Positions 11,095 through 46,011 of a DNA stretch of 64,000 nucleotides are shown in pieces. The stretch spans positions 1 to 64,000 of IMG/VR virus record IMGVR_UViG_3300025101_000019; one strand, 5' to 3'. How positions within the stretch are numbered: the stretch's first letter is position 1; each line of letters begins with the position of its first letter. Both the position numbers and the translations under genes were made by a program. The notes below the pieces were generated by a model that saw only the letters and a list, made by a program, of their open reading frames with translations, ran no database searches and was not told where the DNA came from. Source of the DNA: a virus.

Positions 11095-12765
11095 TTATCC
11101 GCTTATTGCCTCTAAACCATGACAAAATACTTTACCATAGAACTCACCTCTTACCATTTGTTTAGCGTAACGAGTCATTACACCTTTTCTTGGTTGGAAG
11201 TTAGTTGGGTCATACACAAGAGGAGTCATAATTAATGGAATGTATGGAGCGTAAACTGCACCAGTTTCCAAGAATTGAGAACCTTTGAATCCTAATAGGA
11301 TTACATTCTCTTTCATGTATGGGTTTTTGTACACTTGGTATCTGTTAGCGAAAGAACCTACTTGGCTTACACCAAACGCAAATTGCATTTCGTTACCTGT
11401 ACCATTTGACTGATAACCTGGAATAGACTCGATGATAGTAGCAACATCAGGAGATACTACCATAAAGTTTGCTCCACCTCTCATTGTCTTAGCGTGGATT
11501 TGGTTAGAAACTCTCTGTAACTGAGTACCTAAAGTCTGGAACCATTGTTGTTGAGTATATCTCTCAACTGCTGCGTTAAGACCACTTGAAGTGAATTTAG
11601 TACCATCCCAAGAAAATCCGATTCTAGCAGACCACTTAGCTTCAGTTAAAGCGTTTTCTAATAACATATCTAAGATTTCTAAGTCAATCTCTTGTGAGAT
11701 GTACTCAGATAACATAGAAGTTAATTCTGCTTCAGCGTCAATTGAGTGATAAGCGTTTAAATCTTGTGCGAACTCAGGCGTCCATTGTGCTTTCAACTTT
11801 CTTGTCTTAGCTACGATTGGAACACTTCTAAGTTCAACATTCAATTCTGGAATACCTAAGTCTGAACCACCTGAAGTTGTGTCTTCAAAGTCACCTCTTG
11901 TAATGTCAGTTGGTTGCTTTTGGTATTTTACTTTAACACCAGCGATTGCGTTAGTAGCACCTACTAATTTAACCATGAATGATACTGAGTTAGACCCAGA
12001 AACATTTGCTTTAGTGTATGCAGGATAGTAAGCTGCGATGTTAGAACCACTAATTTCGAATGCTCTTACGCCTTCTAAATCAGCTCCAACTAATGCACTT
12101 GCGTCACCAGTAGTTACTGTTACTCTTCTTAACAATGCTCTATCAGCTGCTGATAAAGATTGTGAGAAACTTGAATCATAATCGATTGCTGGGTCTAAAG
12201 CGACACCATTTGCGAATGATTCAGATGTAAATGTAGTAGCTGCTGCGGCTGCTCCGGCTGCTGCTTGAGATAATGCTGCAGATTCAGTCTCGTTGATTGA
12301 ATATGCAAATCTTCCTGCTCCGTAAAGACCTTCACTTGCTTCGTTTGCAGTTTCAGTTACACCGAATACTGAGTCAGTTTGTGAATCTTTACCTGCACCA
12401 GTTTCAAATCCTGGTTGTGCAGTACCATACTTAAAGTCTAAGTAAAATACCAGACCTGATGGTAAGTTCATTGGTTGTACGCTAACGAATTCTTTTGCAG
12501 CGATTTCGCTGAAAATTCTTCTAACCAATGGAAGTGCTACACCTGCCCACTCTTCAGAGTTTGCGGATGTACCTGTTGAAGAAGCTTCTTTTACTAATTC
12601 TCTTGCTTGGTTTTCAAGTAGAGTAGCAATAGTACTTCTTTCAAAATCAGACTCGATACCTTCTAAAAGGCCAGTCTTGTCCCACTTAGTTACTAATCCT
12701 TTTGCCTCATCAGACATTTTCTTAGTATACCCAGCGGATTCGTTTAATAATGAATTTGTATCCAT
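11095..12765 (-). CDS. gp23: Major capsid protein (T4 gp23-like)
   Basis: VQPMNLPSGLVFYL, KTRKLKAQWTPEFAQDLNAYH, YAPYIPL and FQPRKGVMTRYA motifs. Confidence 0.97.
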   Translation of the reverse strand: MDTNSLLNESAGYTKKMSDEAKGLVTKWDKTGLLEGIESDFERSTIATLLENQARELVKEASSTGTSANSEEWAGVALPLVRRIFSEIAAKEFVSVQPMNLPSGLVFYLDFKYGTAQPGFETGAGKDSQTDSVFGVTETANEASEGLYGAGRFAYSINETESAALSQAAAGAAAAATTFTSESFANGVALDPAIDYDSSFSQSLSAADRALLRRVTVTTGDASALVGADLEGVRAFEISGSNIAAYYPAYTKANVSGSNSVSFMVKLVGATNAIAGVKVKYQKQPTDITRGDFEDTTSGGSDLGIPELNVELRSVPIVAKTRKLKAQWTPEFAQDLNAYHSIDAEAELTSMLSEYISQEIDLEILDMLLENALTEAKWSARIGFSWDGTKFTSSGLNAAVERYTQQQWFQTLGTQLQRVSNQIHAKTMRGGANFMVVSPDVATIIESIPGYQSNGTGNEMQFAFGVSQVGSFANRYQVYKNPYMKENVILLGFKGSQFLETGAVYAPYIPLIMTPLVYDPTNFQPRKGVMTRYAKQMVRGEFYGKVFCHGLEAISG

Positions 12766-12786
12766 TTTGATTTCTCCGTTTTTAAA

Positions 12787-13956
12787 TTATTTTATTAGTC
12801 CTGCTAACTTCTTAAATCTGTTAGCAACTTCGTTACCTTCAGAGATTATTGATTTGTTAGGTGCAGTACTTGCAGTTGGTTTAGAAGCGATTCCTTCTTT
12901 AACAACAGTTTTCTTTTTTCTTGCAACATTTAAGTTTTCACCTAATGTAGCAAAAACAAGCTTAACTTCTCTTAAGTTTGCAGCTCTATCAAAGTTCTCG
13001 ATAACTTTAACTTTTTGTGACTCATTCAAATCAAAAGTTCTGAATAATTTGTTGGTGTAAAGTAGTTTAGCGTTTAAAAGATTAACTTCGTTGATAGTTC
13101 CTTTTAAAGATTCGATAGTAGCGTATGCTTCTTCCAACTCTTTATTTTCTTCTTCAACTTCTTCAGTCTCTTCAACTTCTTCTTCTTCGTTTACAACAGA
13201 TTCTTCAACTTCGTCTTCGTTTTCATCTACTTCTTCTTCGTCCATTTCATTTGACATTTCTTTTAATGTCTCAATGATTTCGTCAATATTTAACTCGTCA
13301 TCGTTTTCCACTTCAGATGAATCACTAGCGTCATCAGATGGTTCAGCGTTATCGCCAGCACCTAAATCAGATGAGTCAAGTTCTTCTTTTACTTCTTCTT
13401 CCTCTTCAACTTCTTCTTCGTTGATAGAAGCTTCTAATTCTTTAATTACAGATTCTAAATCAAGTTCGTCTTCGTCCATTTCTGTTTCATCCATTTCTGT
13501 TTCGTCCATGTCCTTCATTTCGTCTGCAGGCGCTTCTTCTTCTGCTTCTTCAGCAGCTTCTTCTTCGTCATGCATTTCGTCTTCATGTCCATCAACAACA
13601 TCAGATGCGATGTCTTCGACTTCTTCTTTATCTTCTGTATCTAATTCCTCGTCAGCTACTTCCTCTTCAGATACTTCATCATCAGTCTCGTCCATATCTT
13701 TCATTTCGTCAGCTACTTCTTCACCTTCATAGGTTTCGTCAGCAACTTCCTCATCAGATTTCATTGCCATTTCGTCAGCAACTTCATCTTCTTCGATATC
13801 GTCTTCGTCTAATTCTTCAGCAATCTTGTGAGATAACATTGATTGAAGTTTTGGAGTGAAGGCTTCTTCTAAGGCCATCTTTGCGTTTGCTAATGCAGTT
13901 TCTTTTACTGCCTTTGCGTCAGCGATAGCTTCTTTTAATAAATCAGATTTAGCCAT
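12787..13956 (-). CDS. Prohead core scaffold protein (gp22-like)
   Basis: Extremely acidic coiled protein directly upstream of the capsid gene, with an AAGGAG SD. Confidence 0.8.
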   Translation of the reverse strand: MAKSDLLKEAIADAKAVKETALANAKMALEEAFTPKLQSMLSHKIAEELDEDDIEEDEVADEMAMKSDEEVADETYEGEEVADEMKDMDETDDEVSEEEVADEELDTEDKEEVEDIASDVVDGHEDEMHDEEEAAEEAEEEAPADEMKDMDETEMDETEMDEDELDLESVIKELEASINEEEVEEEEEVKEELDSSDLGAGDNAEPSDDASDSSEVENDDELNIDEIIETLKEMSNEMDEEEVDENEDEVEESVVNEEEEVEETEEVEEENKELEEAYATIESLKGTINEVNLLNAKLLYTNKLFRTFDLNESQKVKVIENFDRAANLREVKLVFATLGENLNVARKKKTVVKEGIASKPTASTAPNKSIISEGNEVANRFKKLAGLIK

Positions 13957-14034
13957 TTCTGTCTCTCCTTAATTAAATTTTGGATAATAAGATTATTTGG
14001 AATCTTAATAGTGATTACTATTATAAAAATAAGT

Positions 14035-14076
14035 GACCACTCATTGGGGAGTGGTATTGTGTTCGGTTTATAAATA
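14035..14076 (-). promoter_or_regulatory. Late promoter motif (14069-14076) followed by a 5' leader hairpin
   Basis: TATTTATA is followed by ACCACUC-CCCAAU-GAGUGGU. A second hairpin, UAAGAUU/AAUCUUA, lies at about 13988-14007. Confidence 0.55.
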
Positions 14077-14116
14077 TAGGTCTAAAACCAAAAACAGTAA
14101 GTGTTTACTATTTTAT

Positions 14117-14365
14117 TTAATCGTTTGACCTAATTCTTCTTATATATTCTTTTCTGATAGCATCCATCTTTTGTTTTCTTTTAACTGCGGATGGTTTTAT
14201 AAACTCTTTTCTATCCTTAAGTTCTTGTAAGACATTTGATTCTTTAACTTGTCGTTTCCAAAACTTAAGTGCGGCTTCAATATTTCCGTTGATTACTTTT
14301 GCGGCTTTGAATTTACCAGGGATAATCATTTGTTCCCTTCTTACTTTTTTGTATCTTTTTTGCAT
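14117..14365 (-). CDS. rpsU: Phage-encoded ribosomal protein bS21
   Basis: NIEAALKFWKRQVKESNVLQELKDRKEFIKPSAVKRKQK matches the bS21 pattern. ATG at 14365 is preferred over GTG at 14383, which lies in a hairpin. Confidence 0.88.
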   Translation of the reverse strand: MQKRYKKVRREQMIIPGKFKAAKVINGNIEAALKFWKRQVKESNVLQELKDRKEFIKPSAVKRKQKMDAIRKEYIRRIRSND

Positions 14366-14380
14366 ATATAAAAAATTAAA

Positions 14381-14412
14381 CACCGGCCATTAGTGACCGA
14401 TGTTAATAAATA
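14381..14412 (-). promoter_or_regulatory. Late promoter motif (14405-14412) followed by a hairpin and U-rich tract before rpsU
   Basis: TATTTATT, then CAUCGGUCA-CUAA-UGGCCGGUG, then UUUAAUUUUUU. Confidence 0.55.
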
Positions 14413-14437
14413 TAGAAATTATTTTAGTAAATATAAA

Positions 14438-15061
14438 TTATTTGAAATCTTTATCAGATGCTAACTTAGCACTATCTTTTTTGTAGAAGTCAATTAATGT
14501 TTTTAATCGTCTAGCATCAATAGTTACTGATTCATTATTTTCTTTATCTTTTATAAGAAGCGTTGGTCGGTATTCAAATTGACTAACTGCAGATTTTATT
14601 TTAGCACTTCTAAAATATTTAATTACTTCTACAATTCTTTCCTTTGTGAATGGAACACCTTCAAGATAAAATAAACCAACTTGAGGACTGTAATGTGATG
14701 AGTAATCTTCTACTACTACTGATTCTAATAGTTTATTTTTGAATTTCTTTGATAATGTAACTACTGCCTTTACAACATCCTTAATATTTTTTGCATCTAC
14801 TTGAGCGTATTGCTTTGAACCATCTTCAATACTAACATTGTATGGTTTGTCTTCATCTTCGTAATATCCAACGAATAATTGTGTTTCGCCACCATTACCT
14901 GCGTAGAATGTACTTGTGCCTGTATGGTATTCAACATCGTCTCCGTTAACTTGGACATCATTACCAATAGCTTTACTCATTGCCTTTGCGATGATTTTTT
15001 TCTCACCATCTTTTAATGCTGGGTCAGCTTTTTCACTTAATAAGTTTTTTAGTTTTATCAT
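14438..15061 (-). CDS. Putative internal head (cargo) protein
   Basis: N-terminus MIKLKNLLSE and an internal LLE-SVVVE linker. Confidence 0.6.
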   Translation of the reverse strand: MIKLKNLLSEKADPALKDGEKKIIAKAMSKAIGNDVQVNGDDVEYHTGTSTFYAGNGGETQLFVGYYEDEDKPYNVSIEDGSKQYAQVDAKNIKDVVKAVVTLSKKFKNKLLESVVVEDYSSHYSPQVGLFYLEGVPFTKERIVEVIKYFRSAKIKSAVSQFEYRPTLLIKDKENNESVTIDARRLKTLIDFYKKDSAKLASDKDFK

Positions 15062-16638: not shown

Positions 16639-17271
16639 CTAAAAACATTCACAATAGCCACCAACTTCACAGATGATGTCTCTCATAATGTCTTGTGCTT
16701 TATTATACTTATAAGTATCTTGTTTTCTACTAATACCTTCATTTATAACACCTTCATTCTTTGGCGACATAAATGCCCCATGAGTTGATGGGTTAGATAC
16801 AAAGTCCCAACAAATTAATTCAAAGTCTTGTTCTACTGCAACAGTCCCATCTTCACTTATCTGTTTTACAGAACCCATACCTCTTGAAGAGATACCAACA
16901 GTACAACCTGCTTTTATAATTTCTTGTAATATTTTTCCTGATGGTGTATTTAGAATTTCTACTGTTCCGATTACATCATCACCTCTCCACTTTACATTTC
17001 TTACAATGTGTGAAGTGTTTTTTAATTCAACTACTGATGATTCTGGATGGTCTAATTCACCATACGCTCTATTCTCTGCGATTTCTTTTCCTAAGTACTT
17101 AGTAACTTCTCTTCTTAATATATCTTTTGGATATACTCGTCCATTTTGGTTTTTAGCGTTTGCTCTTTGTAAAACACCATCTACCAGAAATCTACCATGT
17201 TCAGATTTAGCCTCTGCCAACATAGTAGGAGTTACTTCAAATATCATTGTATCAATTAAAAGTGATTTCAT
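16639..17271 (-). CDS. gp21: Prohead core protease (T4 gp21-like)
   Basis: NQNGRVYP, GELDHP, GISSRGMGS and WDFVSNPS motifs. Confidence 0.95.
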   Translation of the reverse strand: MKSLLIDTMIFEVTPTMLAEAKSEHGRFLVDGVLQRANAKNQNGRVYPKDILRREVTKYLGKEIAENRAYGELDHPESSVVELKNTSHIVRNVKWRGDDVIGTVEILNTPSGKILQEIIKAGCTVGISSRGMGSVKQISEDGTVAVEQDFELICWDFVSNPSTHGAFMSPKNEGVINEGISRKQDTYKYNKAQDIMRDIICEVGGYCECF

Positions 17272-18852: not shown

Positions 18853-20766
18853 CTAAATCGTGTCATCTATTAAATTGTTCTCGTCTAACAACCCACCTTT
18901 ATCATTAGGTTTGGAGTCATCTTTCAAAGATTCAAGTATTACACTTCTTGTTTTTCTCTTCATCTTACTAAGACTACTTTTCATAGCTTCGGCTTGTTCA
19001 TATGCCAATGGTGATATCTTATGTTTACTATAAGATGTATCTGGCTTGGACGCTCTTCTATTCATTTTCTGTCCAATTGGGTCTCTTCCAAATGGATTAT
19101 CATCCGTTTTGTAGTTCCCTGCCTTTGGTGGTCTTCCCGCTCCATCAAATCCACCATCTGGTGCACCAGGAGGGTTACTTGGAACACCCGAATTACCATA
19201 TTCGTTTTGTGAACCTTCTTCACCATCACCATTTTGTTGTATCATAGCTAAATCATGTGGAGTACCAAACGACTCACCTGATTTTATTGGGTCATTACCT
19301 TCAGATTCTATCTGTTCATGTCTGAAACCTAACTTAAGGTCGTTTATTACCTTACCTTGTTCAAGTTTCCATTCATCGTCTGACATATTAAAGATGTTTT
19401 TATACACCCATTCTTGAGATACCATCTTAAGGTCTTTTAAATCACTTGCAAGTCTTGTTTTTTCAGTCCAAAGATTTGCTTTCTCTTGTTCGTATATGAT
19501 TGATGGGTTAGTCAACTCTAATTCAAAGTTAACTAAGTCTGCATTTTCATATCCTTGTGAGTATAAGTGAATGATTGCAATCTTTGTTAATTCAGATAGT
19601 ACAATTTTTTGTAATCTCTCAACAGTTCTTGCGAATCTAATATCTTCTTGTGCTAATGTTGCTTTACCTTCAACACCTTCTTCATATCCAATAAATGCTT
19701 TTGGAACTTTAAGTGCCGCCATCATTCTATTCTTTAGATATTCAATATCATCAATACCACCGAACTCCATTCCACTTAGGGAATCAATCTCAGTACCACT
19801 TTGTCCACCTCTAACAGGTAGATAGTAATCTTCTAACATATTTTGAAGGTTGAACTTAAGATTGTAGTCACCTGTATTTTGGTCGAGGTAAGGAACTTTC
19901 TTCATTTGGTCAATAATACTTCTCATGTGATTATCAACTTCATTAGGTGGAATGTTACCTACATCAATTTTGAATACTCTTTTCTCAGGCGCTCTCATAA
20001 TTCTATGAATCATCATTGCGTCTTCCATAAGAGTTAATTGTTTCCAAGTTTTTCTTGCACCTTCAATTAGAGAACGACCATATGGAAGGAAGTTTGTATC
20101 TGACATTAATCTAAAGTGTGCCATTTGATAAAACTCCATATAGTCTGCTTGTTTGTTAGATGCGACACCATGAGCTGCGCCAGCTGAACCTAACTTAAAT
20201 CTAACTTCATAAGGATTCTCTGGATTAAAACCTTCTTCTCTTTCTATTTCATATGCTGACATTGGTGATGCGTTTACAATACCCACACCTTCTTCAATAT
20301 CAAGATGTAAAAAGTAATCACCATATTTATTCATACCTCTAATCCAAGACCAAAGGTTAAACTCTATATTCAGTACATCATAGAAAAGGTTTTGTAATAT
20401 CTTTTTTACATTCTCGTCATTCGTCTTAATTCTAAGAACATCACCCATATCATTTTTTAGGGTACATTCATCCGAGTATATATCTAATACAGATGCGATG
20501 ATTGAATCTTTATCCATCGCTTCATAATCTGTATATAATTCTAATTTATTTGAATGGTAGTTGAATTGGTTATTGTAAGTTTCCCAATGCTTTCTTGTAG
20601 TGTGTAATCTACCGAACCTATCATAATAGGACGAACTCCTCAAGTTACCTTGTGATTGTAGTCTTTGAGTATCGATAGCTTGTGTGTTACCTTTACCAAT
20701 TCTACGAACAACAACTTGGGTGTTGAATAATTTCTTTAGTCTACCAAATAATGATTTATCTGCCAT
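18853..20766 (-). CDS. gp20: Portal protein (T4 gp20-like)
   Basis: LMEDAMMIHRIMRAPEKRVFKIDVGN, MLEDYYLPVRGG and ALKVPK motifs. Confidence 0.95.
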   Translation of the reverse strand: MADKSLFGRLKKLFNTQVVVRRIGKGNTQAIDTQRLQSQGNLRSSSYYDRFGRLHTTRKHWETYNNQFNYHSNKLELYTDYEAMDKDSIIASVLDIYSDECTLKNDMGDVLRIKTNDENVKKILQNLFYDVLNIEFNLWSWIRGMNKYGDYFLHLDIEEGVGIVNASPMSAYEIEREEGFNPENPYEVRFKLGSAGAAHGVASNKQADYMEFYQMAHFRLMSDTNFLPYGRSLIEGARKTWKQLTLMEDAMMIHRIMRAPEKRVFKIDVGNIPPNEVDNHMRSIIDQMKKVPYLDQNTGDYNLKFNLQNMLEDYYLPVRGGQSGTEIDSLSGMEFGGIDDIEYLKNRMMAALKVPKAFIGYEEGVEGKATLAQEDIRFARTVERLQKIVLSELTKIAIIHLYSQGYENADLVNFELELTNPSIIYEQEKANLWTEKTRLASDLKDLKMVSQEWVYKNIFNMSDDEWKLEQGKVINDLKLGFRHEQIESEGNDPIKSGESFGTPHDLAMIQQNGDGEEGSQNEYGNSGVPSNPPGAPDGGFDGAGRPPKAGNYKTDDNPFGRDPIGQKMNRRASKPDTSYSKHKISPLAYEQAEAMKSSLSKMKRKTRSVILESLKDDSKPNDKGGLLDENNLIDDTI

Positions 20767-20840: not shown

Positions 20841-22415
20841 TTATAACAACCAAGTTAAATCTTGGTCATTACCATGCTGGTCTTTCTGTTTCCAAGGGTC
20901 TATTCCAAGGTTTCTATTGTTATAAGCACCTGGTTGATTCCTTTTTATGTGGGTTAATGTAGTTCTTGTTAAGTCCATACCTTGTTGTCTTAACTTCAAT
21001 GCCGTATCTCTAACCCAAAGACCTGTTGAGAAAGATATTACTAAGTCATCATTATAACCTCGTTGAGCTTCTGCTCTACTACCATTCCATATAAAAACAA
21101 ACAACTCATCGATTAATCTTTTTGACCTAATCAATGGTGTTCGTTCTCTCATATAAGTATCTAATTTAGATATAACCAATGGACGAGTTCTACTTGTCAT
21201 TGAGAACCCAGGAACCATATCGTCTTTTCTTTTTAAATCAAAACCTTTTCTGAGATGAATATCTTCATCAACATAACCTAAATCTCTGTATGAATAATAT
21301 AGGTTTTGGTAGTTTCTATCTATAACTTCTTGAATTACTGCCCAACCAATGTTTGCGTTTTCAATTACAAGTAATGCATTGTTCCAATCAGTTGCAACCG
21401 ATGTTAAAAATGCACCATATTGTTTTGTTTCAATTTTACCTTTATATTCAGCAACTTGTTCCACAGTCTCAACATCAAAGACATGAAACGCAGAATAGTC
21501 AGTAGAATCCCCACGAGCAACATCAGCCACAACAACATAATCACGAGAATAGTTAGGGTAATCCCATAACCAATAATTACCATCAAAACCTCTTTTTTCA
21601 ATAGGGTCTTTAACATGCGTCTCTTCATACCATTTTAATGTTGAACCTTCTACTACTGTATAACCAGAACTGATAAAATCACAATCACATTCTTGTGCTG
21701 CTCCCTTTTCACCAAGTAACTTTGTTTGTTGTTCTCTCCATGCTTCATCTCTTTCTGGATGAACACTCCAATGTAGTTCTATCGGATTCCATTGTTCACC
21801 TGCTTGTCCTTGTAACCATATTTTGTGAAAAAAGTTACCGACACCATTTGGTGTAGATAATACGATTGCCCCACCACCAGTTGATAGTGTTGATTGTGCA
21901 GATGTCCAAATTTCTTCTACATTATCGATAAACGCAGCTTCATCAATTACCAATAAAGATAATGCTTCAGAACGACCTGCGTCACCTGCAGCAGATGTTG
22001 CTTTTATCTGAGAACCATTTCTAAGTCTTAATGATAACTTGTTATCTTCCTCAGTATTACCTCTTAACCAAGATGGTAAGTTCTGATGCATGAATCTAAC
22101 TTTGGTAACTAAGTTTTTTGCAACCTCTTGTTTAGTTGCAATTACTAATACATTTTTATCTTCATGAAATAACATAAGCCAGAGAGAATATCCGGCTGAT
22201 AGTGTTGATATACCTAATTGTCGTGATTTAAGAATTACATTAAATCTATTATCGGAAACTGCCGACATTAAGTCTTCTTGGAAGTCGTATAAATTAAAAA
22301 GAATTTTACCACGAGATGGGTGTTGAATATAACAATACTTTCTAAAAAAATAGACGGGGTCTTTAGCACACTTTAAGTACTCTTCCTTTATGATTTGTTT
22401 GATATTCTTTTGCAT
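20841..22415 (-). CDS. gp17: Terminase large subunit (T4 gp17-like)
   Basis: KSRQLGIST Walker A, LVIDEAAF Walker B, STPNG, ADVARG and NDDLV nuclease motifs. Confidence 0.95.
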   Translation of the reverse strand: MQKNIKQIIKEEYLKCAKDPVYFFRKYCYIQHPSRGKILFNLYDFQEDLMSAVSDNRFNVILKSRQLGISTLSAGYSLWLMLFHEDKNVLVIATKQEVAKNLVTKVRFMHQNLPSWLRGNTEEDNKLSLRLRNGSQIKATSAAGDAGRSEALSLLVIDEAAFIDNVEEIWTSAQSTLSTGGGAIVLSTPNGVGNFFHKIWLQGQAGEQWNPIELHWSVHPERDEAWREQQTKLLGEKGAAQECDCDFISSGYTVVEGSTLKWYEETHVKDPIEKRGFDGNYWLWDYPNYSRDYVVVADVARGDSTDYSAFHVFDVETVEQVAEYKGKIETKQYGAFLTSVATDWNNALLVIENANIGWAVIQEVIDRNYQNLYYSYRDLGYVDEDIHLRKGFDLKRKDDMVPGFSMTSRTRPLVISKLDTYMRERTPLIRSKRLIDELFVFIWNGSRAEAQRGYNDDLVISFSTGLWVRDTALKLRQQGMDLTRTTLTHIKRNQPGAYNNRNLGIDPWKQKDQHGNDQDLTWLL

Positions 22416-28284: not shown

Positions 28285-31200
28285 TTAATAGAAAAGGCCA
28301 AGGATTTGATTAAGAGGTGCGAATGTACCTGTTAACTTATATGTACCACCTTTATATAGGAATACAATACCCTCGTTTGGTACTATCTTATCTCTTCCAC
28401 CAATACTCTTTAATCTTTCTAATTCCATTTTTAATTTTGCAATCTTTTTTGGGTCACCTGATTTCTGAACATCTTTGATTACTTTGTCTAATTGCTTCTG
28501 AATATCACGAAGTGATTTATCAGGATTAACAGTAAGTGCTGATGACATAAATGAAAGTACTTCTGCACCAAGACCTAAAAATATATCTTCGAATGGTTTC
28601 ATATTATTCTTAGCCATTTTTGAGTGGTCTATTTTATCTGTCTTGTTTGCCCAATCTCTTGTTTTAGAATCAGAAATGTTTTTCTTATCTAATCTAAATG
28701 ATTTATCATAAAACGCCCATCGTTTTACTAACCCCATTTTAGTTTTATTATCTAATGTGGTTGGTGAGTTTTTATCTACAAAATCACTCCACCATGCTTG
28801 ATGGTAATCTGCAACTCCATTAGAATCTTTTAGTTTAAATTCTTTTTGAAGTTTACTTACCTTCGATGAATAAATTGATTTCTTGTTTGATAAATCTTGA
28901 CTCCTCGGTATCTTAACAACTGGTGGTCCTTGGATAGTATAATTATCTTGAACATCGGCATTTACCTGCTTTATCATACCCGCTAATACTTTAGCGTCTG
29001 ATGTATCAGCACCGATTGCTTTTCCATCTTCATTATACTCCATCGTTCCATGAAAGACTAATAGAGGTTGACCATATGGTATTACATTTACTGACTCCGG
29101 CCATATAACTTCAAGGTTCATAAATTTTGAGCCATCCTTGAATATTTTACTTCTTTGCGCATCGGAGAGTTTTGAAATGGCTGATTCTAAATCTCTCATT
29201 GCGAAATTATACGCATCGGTCAACCCACCCCTATTAGCAAACTTATCGGCGACACCTTTGATGTCTAATGCGTTAAGTCCTCTGTCTTTGAGGTGTCCTT
29301 TATTTCTGGCAGCGATAATACCTCTATCTTTACGATATGAGATTGCTAACGCCTGTCCATCTGTTTTCTCTCTTGCAAACTCTAATGTTCCTTCGAGAGC
29401 TTTTGATATGATTGTTTTCAAATCACCAAAAGTTAAATTAATTTCAGTATCAAATGGGTGATTCATATGTCCATATGCGCCACCTTCCATAATCATACTT
29501 TCATTAAATATATTTTGTGTTCCTGCGTTTCCTACATAAGAAACAAAATACAATCTTTGTTTACCAACTTTTTTAGAAAGTACTTGTCCTTCTTTGCCTG
29601 AACTATCAAGTTCTTTTTTTGCATTATCAGGTTTTAAGTAAAACTTTCTCTTTTGTTTCATTAGAGATGCTTTTTTACTTTTTACTTTCTTCTTTGGTTT
29701 TTTCTTTTCACTTAAGAAGTTTTCTTTTTCTTTATTCTTAATCCATAATCCTATTTCAGGACCTTTAATATCGTTAGGTACATCTTTCCCACCAACTGAT
29801 AAATTAAAGTTAACAAACTTACTCATGTCTTTTCCATCTGATTTAGGACCTAACATAAGTTTACCATATTGTTTAATTTGGTCATCCGATAAAGTTGTTT
29901 TCTTTTGTGCGTTTTTATAAACAACAATATCATCGGCTCTAAATGACTGAAGTGATACTAAGAATACTATATTGTTTTTTTCTTCGTTTGAGTATGTAAG
30001 TTTGTTTAATGCTTTTGATAATACTACTGGAGAGTTTTTGGATAATACTACTGATAAAAATAAAATGTAATCATTATCAGTTGGATATGGTTTTGATACT
30101 TTTAGATTTGGAAGTATCTGTTGTGTAAATCCAAGTTTGTCACACATCTCTAAATACTTAGAAGGATTCTTTGCTTTCTTTATAGACTTAACAAACTCAT
30201 CTCTGATTCTTTCTGCACTTACACCTTTTAGTGATGGGTCACTTTGAAGTGCGTCATGTAGTTCTTTGTCAAGTTTACCACCTGTACTTGCTTGGAATCT
30301 TAATGCTCTTAATTTTCTAAGTGGGTCTTCATCAAATCTTTCTGATGCGTTACCAACTGTTCTAATGTTTTTCTTTTTAAGGTCTGCAATACCACCAACT
30401 AAATCTACGATTTCTTTTTTATCGATATCGTAGAACAATGCATTGATAGTTAAATCTCTTCTTCTTACATCACCTTCTATATCTGTATAATCAACTGAGT
30501 CGGGTCTACGACCTTTACCGATATCTTTTCTAAATGTTGCAATCTCGTGTCCACCAACCATTACAACTCCGAATGATTTTCCGACTTCAACAGTTTTCAT
30601 TCCTGCGTCCTTTGCAATCTTTAGAACTTCATCAGGTTTTGCGTCTGTTGCTAAATCATAATCTTTTGGTGACTTACCAAGTATTGCGTCTCTTACTGCA
30701 CCACCCACTACATAAAGTTTCTTACTATTCTTTTTGAATGCTTTGTGAATCTTTAAAATATCAGATGGTATTTTTAGTAATTGTTTTGCCTCATTTATTA
30801 AATCATATCTTTCAATAGATTCTTTTAGTGAAGCGGCTTTACCTTGTTGTTTTTTTGTTTTAGTTTTAGGAGTAAGGTTATCTAAATCTTTTGGTTCAGC
30901 GAATTTAACAAATTCCATACCCAATCTCAATGCAACTCTTTTAATATGTTTTGCCCATTTTCTATAAGCAGGTCTACCAGTTATATCTTTACCATATCTC
31001 TTTTTCTGCCCATCCATAGTATCACCACTTGGAAAGAATGATACTTGATATCTACCAGGTCCATTTGGATAATGGGTGTTAAACGATTCCATTGAGTCTT
31101 CGTCCATTAAGTAGTTTACAATATCCCAACCCAAGTCCCCAACAACTTCTTCCATCTCTGCTTTATAAGATTTCATATTACCATAGAATGCACCTGGCCC

Positions 31201-31902
31201 ATCATCTACAATACCTTTACCACTTGTTGGAATTTGTGAAGCTTCATTGATTAAACTATTAATGTTAATTGATTGTAAAAAAGATTCCATTACGGATTCT
31301 ACTGAGATTAATCTGCCTGATACTAAGTTAAATATTTTTGGATTGAATTTACCATATACTTTTTTAAAGAATGATTTTCTTTGAGAATCACTCCCCCTCG
31401 ACATTCCCTTACGAACATCAGTACCACTTATATTACCAAAAGATGGTGATACATAAACATATCCCTTATCTTTGTAACCTGTATCAACATTTCCCTTTTT
31501 ATACATTGAAAAATATTTTTGATAACCAGGACTTGCTAATCTGTTTGCATCTTTTTTTCCTACGACAGTAATAAATGCCGTTGTTTTTTCTGGAAACTTA
31601 TCCATCACCTCTGATGGTGAATATGGGTTTTTAACTTGAACAATTTTATTAGAAGGGATTTTAAACATCGTAGTCATAACTTCTCTTTTTTCTCTGAAGT
31701 TAAATGGATGTCTTGGACCACCTTGTTTGTTTGATGTACCTATGAATACATTATTCTTACCAAACTTACTGACAAGATGTTCGTAAACTTTTGCGTGTCC
31801 AGAATGGAAGGGTTGAAATCTACCTGAGTAAACTACTACCTCTTTTTTTATATCTTCACTCAGTATAGAGTCTACTACCCAATTTGTTAAAGTCTTTCCC
31901 AT
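28285..31902 (-). CDS. Multi-enzyme polyprotein: HIGH nucleotidyltransferase (NMNAT/cytidylyltransferase-like), unknown domain, class II CCA-adding enzyme, ligase-like domain
   Basis: GRFQPFHSGH...ISGTDVR; VGGAVRD, DYDLAT, RRRDLTINAL and EDPLR; EKTDG...NLE...LVF...EGIV...YK. Confidence 0.85.
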   Translation of the reverse strand: MGKTLTNWVVDSILSEDIKKEVVVYSGRFQPFHSGHAKVYEHLVSKFGKNNVFIGTSNKQGGPRHPFNFREKREVMTTMFKIPSNKIVQVKNPYSPSEVMDKFPEKTTAFITVVGKKDANRLASPGYQKYFSMYKKGNVDTGYKDKGYVYVSPSFGNISGTDVRKGMSRGSDSQRKSFFKKVYGKFNPKIFNLVSGRLISVESVMESFLQSININSLINEASQIPTSGKGIVDDGPGAFYGNMKSYKAEMEEVVGDLGWDIVNYLMDEDSMESFNTHYPNGPGRYQVSFFPSGDTMDGQKKRYGKDITGRPAYRKWAKHIKRVALRLGMEFVKFAEPKDLDNLTPKTKTKKQQGKAASLKESIERYDLINEAKQLLKIPSDILKIHKAFKKNSKKLYVVGGAVRDAILGKSPKDYDLATDAKPDEVLKIAKDAGMKTVEVGKSFGVVMVGGHEIATFRKDIGKGRRPDSVDYTDIEGDVRRRDLTINALFYDIDKKEIVDLVGGIADLKKKNIRTVGNASERFDEDPLRKLRALRFQASTGGKLDKELHDALQSDPSLKGVSAERIRDEFVKSIKKAKNPSKYLEMCDKLGFTQQILPNLKVSKPYPTDNDYILFLSVVLSKNSPVVLSKALNKLTYSNEEKNNIVFLVSLQSFRADDIVVYKNAQKKTTLSDDQIKQYGKLMLGPKSDGKDMSKFVNFNLSVGGKDVPNDIKGPEIGLWIKNKEKENFLSEKKKPKKKVKSKKASLMKQKRKFYLKPDNAKKELDSSGKEGQVLSKKVGKQRLYFVSYVGNAGTQNIFNESMIMEGGAYGHMNHPFDTEINLTFGDLKTIISKALEGTLEFAREKTDGQALAISYRKDRGIIAARNKGHLKDRGLNALDIKGVADKFANRGGLTDAYNFAMRDLESAISKLSDAQRSKIFKDGSKFMNLEVIWPESVNVIPYGQPLLVFHGTMEYNEDGKAIGADTSDAKVLAGMIKQVNADVQDNYTIQGPPVVKIPRSQDLSNKKSIYSSKVSKLQKEFKLKDSNGVADYHQAWWSDFVDKNSPTTLDNKTKMGLVKRWAFYDKSFRLDKKNISDSKTRDWANKTDKIDHSKMAKNNMKPFEDIFLGLGAEVLSFMSSALTVNPDKSLRDIQKQLDKVIKDVQKSGDPKKIAKLKMELERLKSIGGRDKIVPNEGIVFLYKGGTYKLTGTFAPLNQILGLFY

Positions 31903-45547: not shown

Positions 45548-45576
45548 TTAATATAAAGTTACCTTAATATACGAAA

Positions 45577-46011
45577 TTATTTCGAGAATGCAAAGAAATT
45601 TTGTGAAGGTTTTTCATCTATCCATTCTTGTGGGATTTCCTTCTTTGCCCATTTGAACCCATTCTTCTCACACCACTCGGCGTAAGTAGTTTTAGAACCT
45701 TTGTATATTTTACCATTCGGTGATTGTAATACAAACCTTAAATCCATCTCTGGATTTTGTTCTTTTATTAATAAATGTTTTTTTCTATCTTCAGGTAAAA
45801 ACCACCCTTTCGATTCTATATAGATTCCATTTGGTAATTTAAAATCTGGTTTGTAAGTATGGTGTGTTGCTGGTATTGTATATGATACTTCGTGTTTTTC
45901 ATATTCACCATCGATACCTTGAGCTTGAAGTTGTTCATCAATTCGTGTCTCAAGGCCGGACTTATGTCCTTTTTGTTTTTGGATGTGACTCCAATTGCCT
46001 TTTTTATTCAT
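45577..46011 (-). CDS. T7 endonuclease I-like Holliday junction resolvase
   Basis: KSGLE, YKPDF, IESKG, DRKKH and KTTYAEWC motifs. Confidence 0.9.
   Translation of the reverse strand: MNKKGNWSHIQKQKGHKSGLETRIDEQLQAQGIDGEYEKHEVSYTIPATHHTYKPDFKLPNGIYIESKGWFLPEDRKKHLLIKEQNPEMDLRFVLQSPNGKIYKGSKTTYAEWCEKNGFKWAKKEIPQEWIDEKPSQNFFAFSK

Follow-up and report, generated by a model that had tools for sequence, protein, structure and literature searches.

Among the ribosomal proteins encoded by phages, bS21 is the commonest, and the purpose that it serves there has so far been a matter of conjecture only (PMC9723584, PMC9976891). The freshwater Bacteroidetes myoviruses described by Chen et al. (2022; PMC9723584) carry the gene for bS21 (rpsU) beside those for terminase, portal, protease and capsid, as a separate unit according to that report, and have members of the Bacteroidota as hosts; their bS21 is expressed late, and its substitution into host ribosomes has been proposed. 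In clades a-e of these phages, rpsU is located on the reverse strand of a genome of about 300 kb, and its product possesses an aromatic residue at position 54 (PMC9723584). The published record thus already covers bS21 in phages, the lateness of its expression and the proposed substitution.

A second point of reference is the autoregulation of rpsU in Flavobacterium johnsoniae. In the host ribosome, bS21, bS18 and bS6 hide the anti-Shine-Dalgarno (anti-SD) sequence, and whether this sequence is free to pair depends on the state of bS21 at the 30S platform (PMC7797042, PMC9976891, PMC13000457); Tyr54 of host bS21 stacks on A1534 (PMC7797042). This control concerns one gene, rpsU itself, whose SD forms a helix of 13 bp that expels bS21 and is read by ribosomes lacking this protein (PMC13000457). 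Host ribosomes without bS21, or with its Y54A variant, gain only on strong (extended) SDs, and a weak AGGA SD brought virtually no gain in F. johnsoniae even when bS21 was depleted or carried Y54A (PMC9976891). Among the bS21 paralogues of Francisella tularensis, too, a bS21 variant is reported to alter the choice of mRNAs for translation (PMC9578407).

The stretch of DNA studied here (the window) comprises the first 64 kb of a virus record of 173,350 bases with a CheckV completeness of 95%, nearly all genes of which lie on the minus strand. The encoded structural set includes a Gp23-type capsid protein, a prohead protease, a T4-like portal, terminase, sheath and tube (Table 1), and gene order and late motif are in common with Immutovirus; judged by this gene content, the phage is an Immutovirus-like myovirus, a description that implies no formal genus or family rank. 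The deposited phages nearest by capsid protein are Mel-JY01 (58% identity; rpsU present) and the Flavobacterium phage immuto (52%; rpsU absent). Immuto, which is cultured on Flavobacterium and has no rpsU in its complete genome, is the closest bS21-less relative; it resembles our phage in head gene order, late motif and early promoter spacing, and 56 of 197 proteins gave hits in the comparison of the two. It differs in its lack of bS21, in SD-level pairing on only 5% of its genes, and in a family A polymerase where our phage has one of family B with clamp and clamp loader. The latter three genes (L020:6088-12070; genome positions 130085-136070) are common to the bS21-encoding genomes. A ClpS-family protease adaptor is encoded on the minus strand at L018:18172-18405 (genome 102169-102405) and is of interest because removal of host bS21 by phages has been suggested in the literature. 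Several unrelated ORFs between positions 14438 and 16624 start with a similar KLK-x-LL-x-E tag, as they do in relatives, and this tag is a possible candidate for a capsid cargo signal. RNA-library contigs matching the phage came from marine and some freshwater samples.

Table 1. Features of the window around rpsU and the head genes, with an example of an early promoter
Feature	Position	Strand	Remarks
Major capsid protein (Gp23)	11095..12765	-	Profile match E 1.5e-78
SD (GGAG) of major capsid gene	12774..12777	-	-6.6 kcal/mol
Scaffold-like protein, acidic, 389 aa	12787..13956	-	Putative role, from position and homology to immuto gp067; no match in Pfam or PHROG
SD (AAGGAG) of scaffold gene	13965..13970	-	-8.2 kcal/mol
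Hairpin and U-tract between rpsU and scaffold	14036..14055	-	Terminator scan
Second late-type motif, upstream of scaffold	14069..14077	-	Motif search
rpsU, phage bS21, 82 aa, ATG start	14117..14365	-	Pfam PF01165 E 1.7e-12
11-bp hairpin and U-rich tract, terminator-like	14379..14404	-	Directly after late motif; fold z -4.1; terminator scan
Late-type promoter motif ATATTTAT upstream of rpsU	14405..14413	-	Putative promoter
Prohead protease, SD-led	16639..17271	-	Peptidase_S77
Portal, low-copy late gene without SD	18853..20766	-	phrog_213; leader -2.8 kcal/mol
Terminase large subunit	20841..22415	-	phrog_2; leader -6.0 kcal/mol here; SD not kept family-wide
Bipartite early promoter before primase	45563..45593	-	TTG, 20-nt spacer, TAnnTTAG-like box; host marker

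By its sequence, the product of the phage rpsU gene is a true bS21: it matches PF01165 with 47.3 bits (cut-off 27) over profile positions 4-54, and its best matches in the PDB are bS21 proteins. The AF2 model (pLDDT 86.5), with a strand at residues 18-22 and helices at residues 29-42, 45-53 and 58-81, reproduces the bS21 layout of an N-terminal strand, helices, the KPS motif and a long C-terminal helix; the N-terminal extension is modelled fairly confidently and contains a short helix. A Foldseek search with this model returned nothing at E <= 0.001, its weak matches being mitoribosome chains of 85-86 aa at E 0.3. In comparison with 25 bS21 proteins of Bacteroidia, the phage protein lacks the traits of the anti-SD-sequestering type. 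It possesses an N-terminal extension of about 18 aa that the hosts do not have, Lys41 at host position 24, where an acidic residue is typical of Bacteroidia, and Arg71 in the column of Tyr54, which is Tyr in 96% of the Bacteroidia proteins. Two of these features recur throughout the phage family, since an extension of 9-25 aa, mostly basic, is present in 85/85 aligned phage proteins and 0/25 host proteins, and Lys occupies host position 24 in 111/113 phage proteins and 0/25 host proteins. Host positions 23, 26, 30 and 33 are altered as well in phage bS21, and divergence in this stretch was also seen by Chen et al. (PMC9723584). A tree of bS21, built from 65 columns, was mostly unresolved.

We scored SD strength as the pairing of leader positions -18 to -4 with the 16S tail, for which we used the canonical sequence and not one taken from the host. 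Early and late blocks were drawn by hand from the annotation, and the starts were called mechanically, some of them wrongly. At a threshold of <= -4.5 kcal/mol, SDs preceded 33/53 genes of the late blocks and 11/123 genes of the early ones (Fisher p 5e-13). In 300 shuffles of the late leaders, 11 SDs were obtained on average and never more than 18, compared with the 33 observed, while the early leaders fell below their shuffled background (11 SDs versus 19 +/- 3.8 expected). Mechanical classing of the genes by their nearest promoter motif yielded a weaker but clear difference (39/106 versus 12/91 SD-led genes, p 1.6e-4). These data agree with the first-pass annotation of this DNA, made from its letters alone, in that SDs are concentrated on structural genes: all eight SD-like sites that it had named are present (-6.1 to -8.2 kcal/mol), and the five leaders that it had described as SD-less scored from +1.3 to -1.8, with the exception of that of primase (-4.0), which has AAGGT after its promoter. 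In two other bS21-encoding genomes, G014 and G015, the class bias is weak (p 0.19 and 0.33).

The content of G peaks at positions -12 to -8 from the start in late genes only, and within the 16S tail it is mainly CUCCUU that pairs. Most phage SDs comprise 5-7 bp, compared with 9-12 bp in the strong SDs of host rpsU genes. Such short SDs are found on the high-copy virion genes for capsid, scaffold, protease, sheath, tube and neck; the leaders of the early genes for SSB, GroEL and Hsp20 have 4-bp pairings only, and the low-copy portal and terminase genes are mostly without SD across the family. An ORF for a 1205-aa fusion with matches to cytidyltransferase and tRNA nucleotidyltransferase (28285-31902) lies in a late region and has an SD-less leader.

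The gene for bS21 itself lacks an SD (-1.7 kcal/mol). In 71/86 relatives, too, rpsU has no SD while the genes around it do, with the clade of Mel-JY01 as the main exception, and the extended SD of host rpsU leaders, which reaches -13.6 to -20.5 kcal/mol in 8/25 of them, is absent before the phage gene. This leader would fit a protein that is first made on unmodified ribosomes. An alternative GTG start at 14383 falls within the hairpin upstream of rpsU, and the rpsU genes of relatives start at ATG. The late motif occurs at 36 sites on the coding strand and at 3 on the opposite one, ranks first among upstream 8-mers in this genome and near the top in immuto, and is invariant upstream of rpsU across 17 relatives. 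In the hairpin that follows it, 8/12 pairs displayed two-sided changes among 17 relatives, with 96% paired (slid controls, 31-46%), a covariation that is partly circular because the structure was derived from the tested alignment itself. The gene had been placed in a head operon with a late-type motif of its own; this motif is present and rpsU does lie directly upstream of the scaffold and capsid genes, but a single operon is doubtful because a second late motif and a second hairpin separate rpsU from scaffold (Table 1). On the simplest reading of these elements, the hairpins would be terminators that end upstream transcription, with local late starts, and rpsU and scaffold-capsid probably form separate transcription units. 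RNA runs are represented by contigs, which cannot rank genes or show starts; scaffold-capsid contigs in four studies end near 13937-14039 and two runs are without cover over rpsU. We did not count these contigs as evidence; they are at most a weak hint at a separate scaffold-capsid unit. Inspection by eye of the rpsU leaders of six relatives (L055, L057, L070, L074, L077 and L186) revealed an early-type rather than a late-type motif upstream. The timing of bS21 may differ by lineage, and such timing might predict SDs on middle genes. In G014, SDs are present on 10/26 early orthologues.

The early promoters of the phage are bipartite: in 21/28 sites, a TTG lies 23 nt upstream of a TAnnTTAG-like box, and this offset is identical in immuto, Mel-JY01 and two bS21-less relatives. 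An upstream TTG element belongs to the Bacteroidota sigmaA-type promoter. The early box resembles the TAnnTTTG box of Bacteroidota sigmaA (PMC9723704). DUF4494 scored over its cut-off in our phage and is also present in immuto and Mel-JY01; of 14 control genomes, that of Bacteroides alone has it. Since bipartite promoters, DUF4494 and the depletion of SDs on early genes coincide, we consider it highly probable from these markers that the host belongs to the Bacteroidia. The presumption that this host does not use SDs in the normal manner very probably holds as well, considering the Bacteroidota-type promoters, DUF4494, the relative that infects Flavobacterium and the occurrence of early SDs below chance. 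Mel-JY01 (PP395634; L024, L248-L257), which encodes bS21, was deposited as a Microcystis phage, a label that its Bacteroidota-type bipartite promoters and DUF4494 render doubtful; a literature search without most subscription journals found no publication on this phage. We also scanned genome contigs for NrdB to find the host, and the seven matches inspected have phage-like neighbours and gave no firm host; matches in several GTDB MAGs (L282-L298) look like binned phage DNA for this reason.

To compare phages with and without bS21, we assembled 144 non-redundant loci (capsid identity under 95%) from four viral scans and one metagenome scan and scored bS21 as absent only when a locus spanned protease to capsid. 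In 89/89 bS21-encoding loci holding both of these genes, rpsU is situated between them and is co-oriented. With an SD call at <= -4 kcal/mol, the capsid gene is SD-led in 113/114 relatives with bS21 and in 2/30 without, the scaffold gene in 111/114 and 5/29, and the protease gene in 86/89 and 2/30, respectively. The rates are low for portal (12/67 with bS21, 0/19 without) and terminase (12/50 and 2/17), which indicates that the SDs mark high-copy genes. The median share of SD-led genes per locus is 0.54 with bS21 and 0.07 without. The letters of the SDs vary among relatives (GGAG, GAGGA, AAGGA, AGGUG) and their complementarity is kept. Late orthologue pairs have a median of -6.1 kcal/mol here and -0.8 in immuto (n=17, p 1.5e-5); the gap is much smaller for early pairs (-2.3 and -0.7). 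No bS21 over cut-off was detected in the whole records of 11 bS21-less phages, among which immuto alone is complete. Rhodothermus phage RM378 was uninformative as an SD-using control, with SDs at 30% versus a background of 16% and poor start calls.

A few loci depart from the rule. L053 encodes a bS21 and is mostly SD-less; its protein (L053:5913-6125) has a short extension, is nearest to the host proteins on the tree and is possibly a separate acquisition. In L195 and L198 the capsid gene is SD-led although the interval from protease to capsid lacks bS21; both are fragments (completeness 6% and 16%; GC 40% and 53%), and a different host or a bS21 gene elsewhere is possible. Four other bS21-less loci (L110, L400, L407, L414) carry an SD on the scaffold gene only, possibly as a relic of bS21 loss or for use of the bS21-less ribosome pool. 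No small accessory gene common to all bS21-encoding genomes was found; the search recovered only replication genes (family B polymerase, clamp and loader), a pair of large early ORFs and a pair of small ones found in 4/6 genomes.

A tree of five genes implies 5 changes in bS21 and 4 in the capsid SD, so that the association rests on a handful of events and the counts of tips overstate the evidence. Four independent pairs are available on well-supported branches, of which about 3 are concordant, 1 is tied and 0 are opposed (p 0.25); a capsid-only tree yields 2 pairs and has no power. A single bS21-less clade was rejected (AU p 3.5e-6; 3.2e-5 with L053 and L366 added). Gain and loss of bS21 are not separable because the trees are quick, unrooted and long-branched, and lineage and host are confounded because immuto, besides lacking bS21, has a different replication module. 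Within these bounds, the co-occurrence of bS21 and SDs in the genomes compared is real and strong, and the pattern suggests that phage bS21 may adjust the ribosomes of the host to the translation of late genes.

The first-pass annotation had proposed that phage bS21 replaces the host copy late in infection and unlocks SD-dependent translation of virion mRNAs, and its suggestion to align the C-terminus implied an explanation through Tyr54. This proposal is partly supported: the host is very probably SD-blind, SD strength differs by gene class, and bS21-less relatives lack these SDs. Replacement of the host copy and unlocking are putative steps, and the Tyr54 explanation fails across the family. 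Tyr or Phe is kept at host position 54 in 59/113 phage proteins, the median capsid SD is -6.2 kcal/mol beside these (n=59) and -6.35 beside the others (n=54; p 0.45), and any difference in scaffold SDs favours Tyr/Phe54 as the side with the stronger ones. We therefore rejected loss of Tyr54 as the determinant of the family's SDs.

We favour with fair confidence a reading of these sequences in which a lytic phage of a Bacteroidia host would use two modes of translation, the phage protein staying bound to the ribosome and permitting ordinary short SD pairing. Early genes, with host-type promoters and SD-less leaders, would be translated in the host mode, and bS21 itself would first be made by unmodified ribosomes from its SD-less, late-motif-led gene. 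It would then displace the host copy from 30S subunits, either by exchanging with it or by being built in as the subunits assemble; PMC9723584 cites a demonstration in E. coli that a different phage bS21 binds the 30S subunit. The resulting ribosomes would keep a bS21 and have an anti-SD usable for ordinary pairing of 5-7 bp, and the output of SD-led late mRNAs would rise relative to that of SD-less host and early mRNAs. The features responsible are probably the basic N-terminal extension, which may disturb the bS18/bS6 pocket, and the changes in helices 1-2 (Lys24), with loss of Tyr54, as in this phage, being an optional extra. More tentatively, the bS21 of the whole family could be a gain-of-function protein whose extension and helix changes, rather than loss of Tyr54, enable the otherwise SD-blind ribosome of Bacteroidota to read SDs.

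It is unlikely, in our estimation, that phage bS21 is not the SD reader and that the late SDs are read by bS21-less or pocket-damaged ribosomes, which would arise when host bS21 is removed, when a phage copy that binds only loosely displaces it or when some other phage factor acts. In ribosomes lacking bS21, which account for over 10% of the host pool, the anti-SD is free (PMC13000457), retention of Tyr/Phe54 in about half of the phage proteins would be compatible with this route, and the phage encodes a ClpS adaptor, a protease route having been proposed (PMC9976891). However, the ClpS gene is found in only 2/6 other bS21-encoding genomes, which also have no small accessory gene in common, and bS21-less ribosomes need extended SDs. 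The phage SDs are shorter than these ribosomes require, which makes active support of SD pairing likelier than plain release of the anti-SD.

We regard it as rather improbable that host lineage accounts for the pattern, such that the Bacteroidota hosts of bS21-encoding phages have a leaky anti-SD pocket, short SDs boost highly expressed genes there anyway, and bS21 is carried for another reason, e.g., to keep ribosomes complete. The independent contrasts are few, several ribosomal genes are SD-led in some classes of Bacteroidota (PMC7797042), and SD presence tracks copy number (capsid yes, portal no), as it would for a plain enhancer. This reading sits poorly with the depletion of SDs on early genes, extending to those for SSB, GroEL and Hsp20, and with a tree on which lineages with and without bS21 interleave and have promoter types in common. 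Purine-rich motifs that merely co-occur with bS21, as binding sites of a phage or host protein or as RNase or stability signals of late mRNAs, would suit the many SD-like sites that pair over 4-6 bp only, and GGAG is the cleavage motif of RegB in T4, but the G peak in the canonical SD window, the focus of pairing on CUCCUU and the retention of complementarity while the letters vary make this very unlikely.

Were bS21-dependent reading of late SDs to prove true, it would be a clear example of specialised ribosomes made by a virus and possibly a one-gene switch for SD-dependent expression in Bacteroidota; with a gain of function, virion genes would have a nearly orthogonal channel of translation, and there would be a reason for phages to carry bS21, their commonest ribosomal protein. 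The locus offers a concrete target in the short SDs of its high-copy late genes, and its bS21 offers candidate determinants. Immuto, in culture on Flavobacterium, is a natural negative control, and the strains and reporters already available for F. johnsoniae make the question directly testable.

In a literature search that left most subscription journals uncovered, we came across no publication connecting phage bS21 with SD-led late genes, nor any in which relatives without bS21 served as controls. The paralogues of F. tularensis are chromosomal genes of a gammaproteobacterium and not phage-encoded (PMC9578407). Unlike clades a-e of Chen et al., our phage has a co-oriented rpsU, a genome of 173 kb and Arg at the position of Tyr54, and what it adds to those phages is that late-gene SDs follow the presence of bS21. 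It shares with the autoregulation of F. johnsoniae rpsU the dependence on the bS21 status of the ribosome that we propose, but where that system concerns a single gene with a long helix, the phage would act on dozens of genes with short SDs, among which rpsU is the gene without one.
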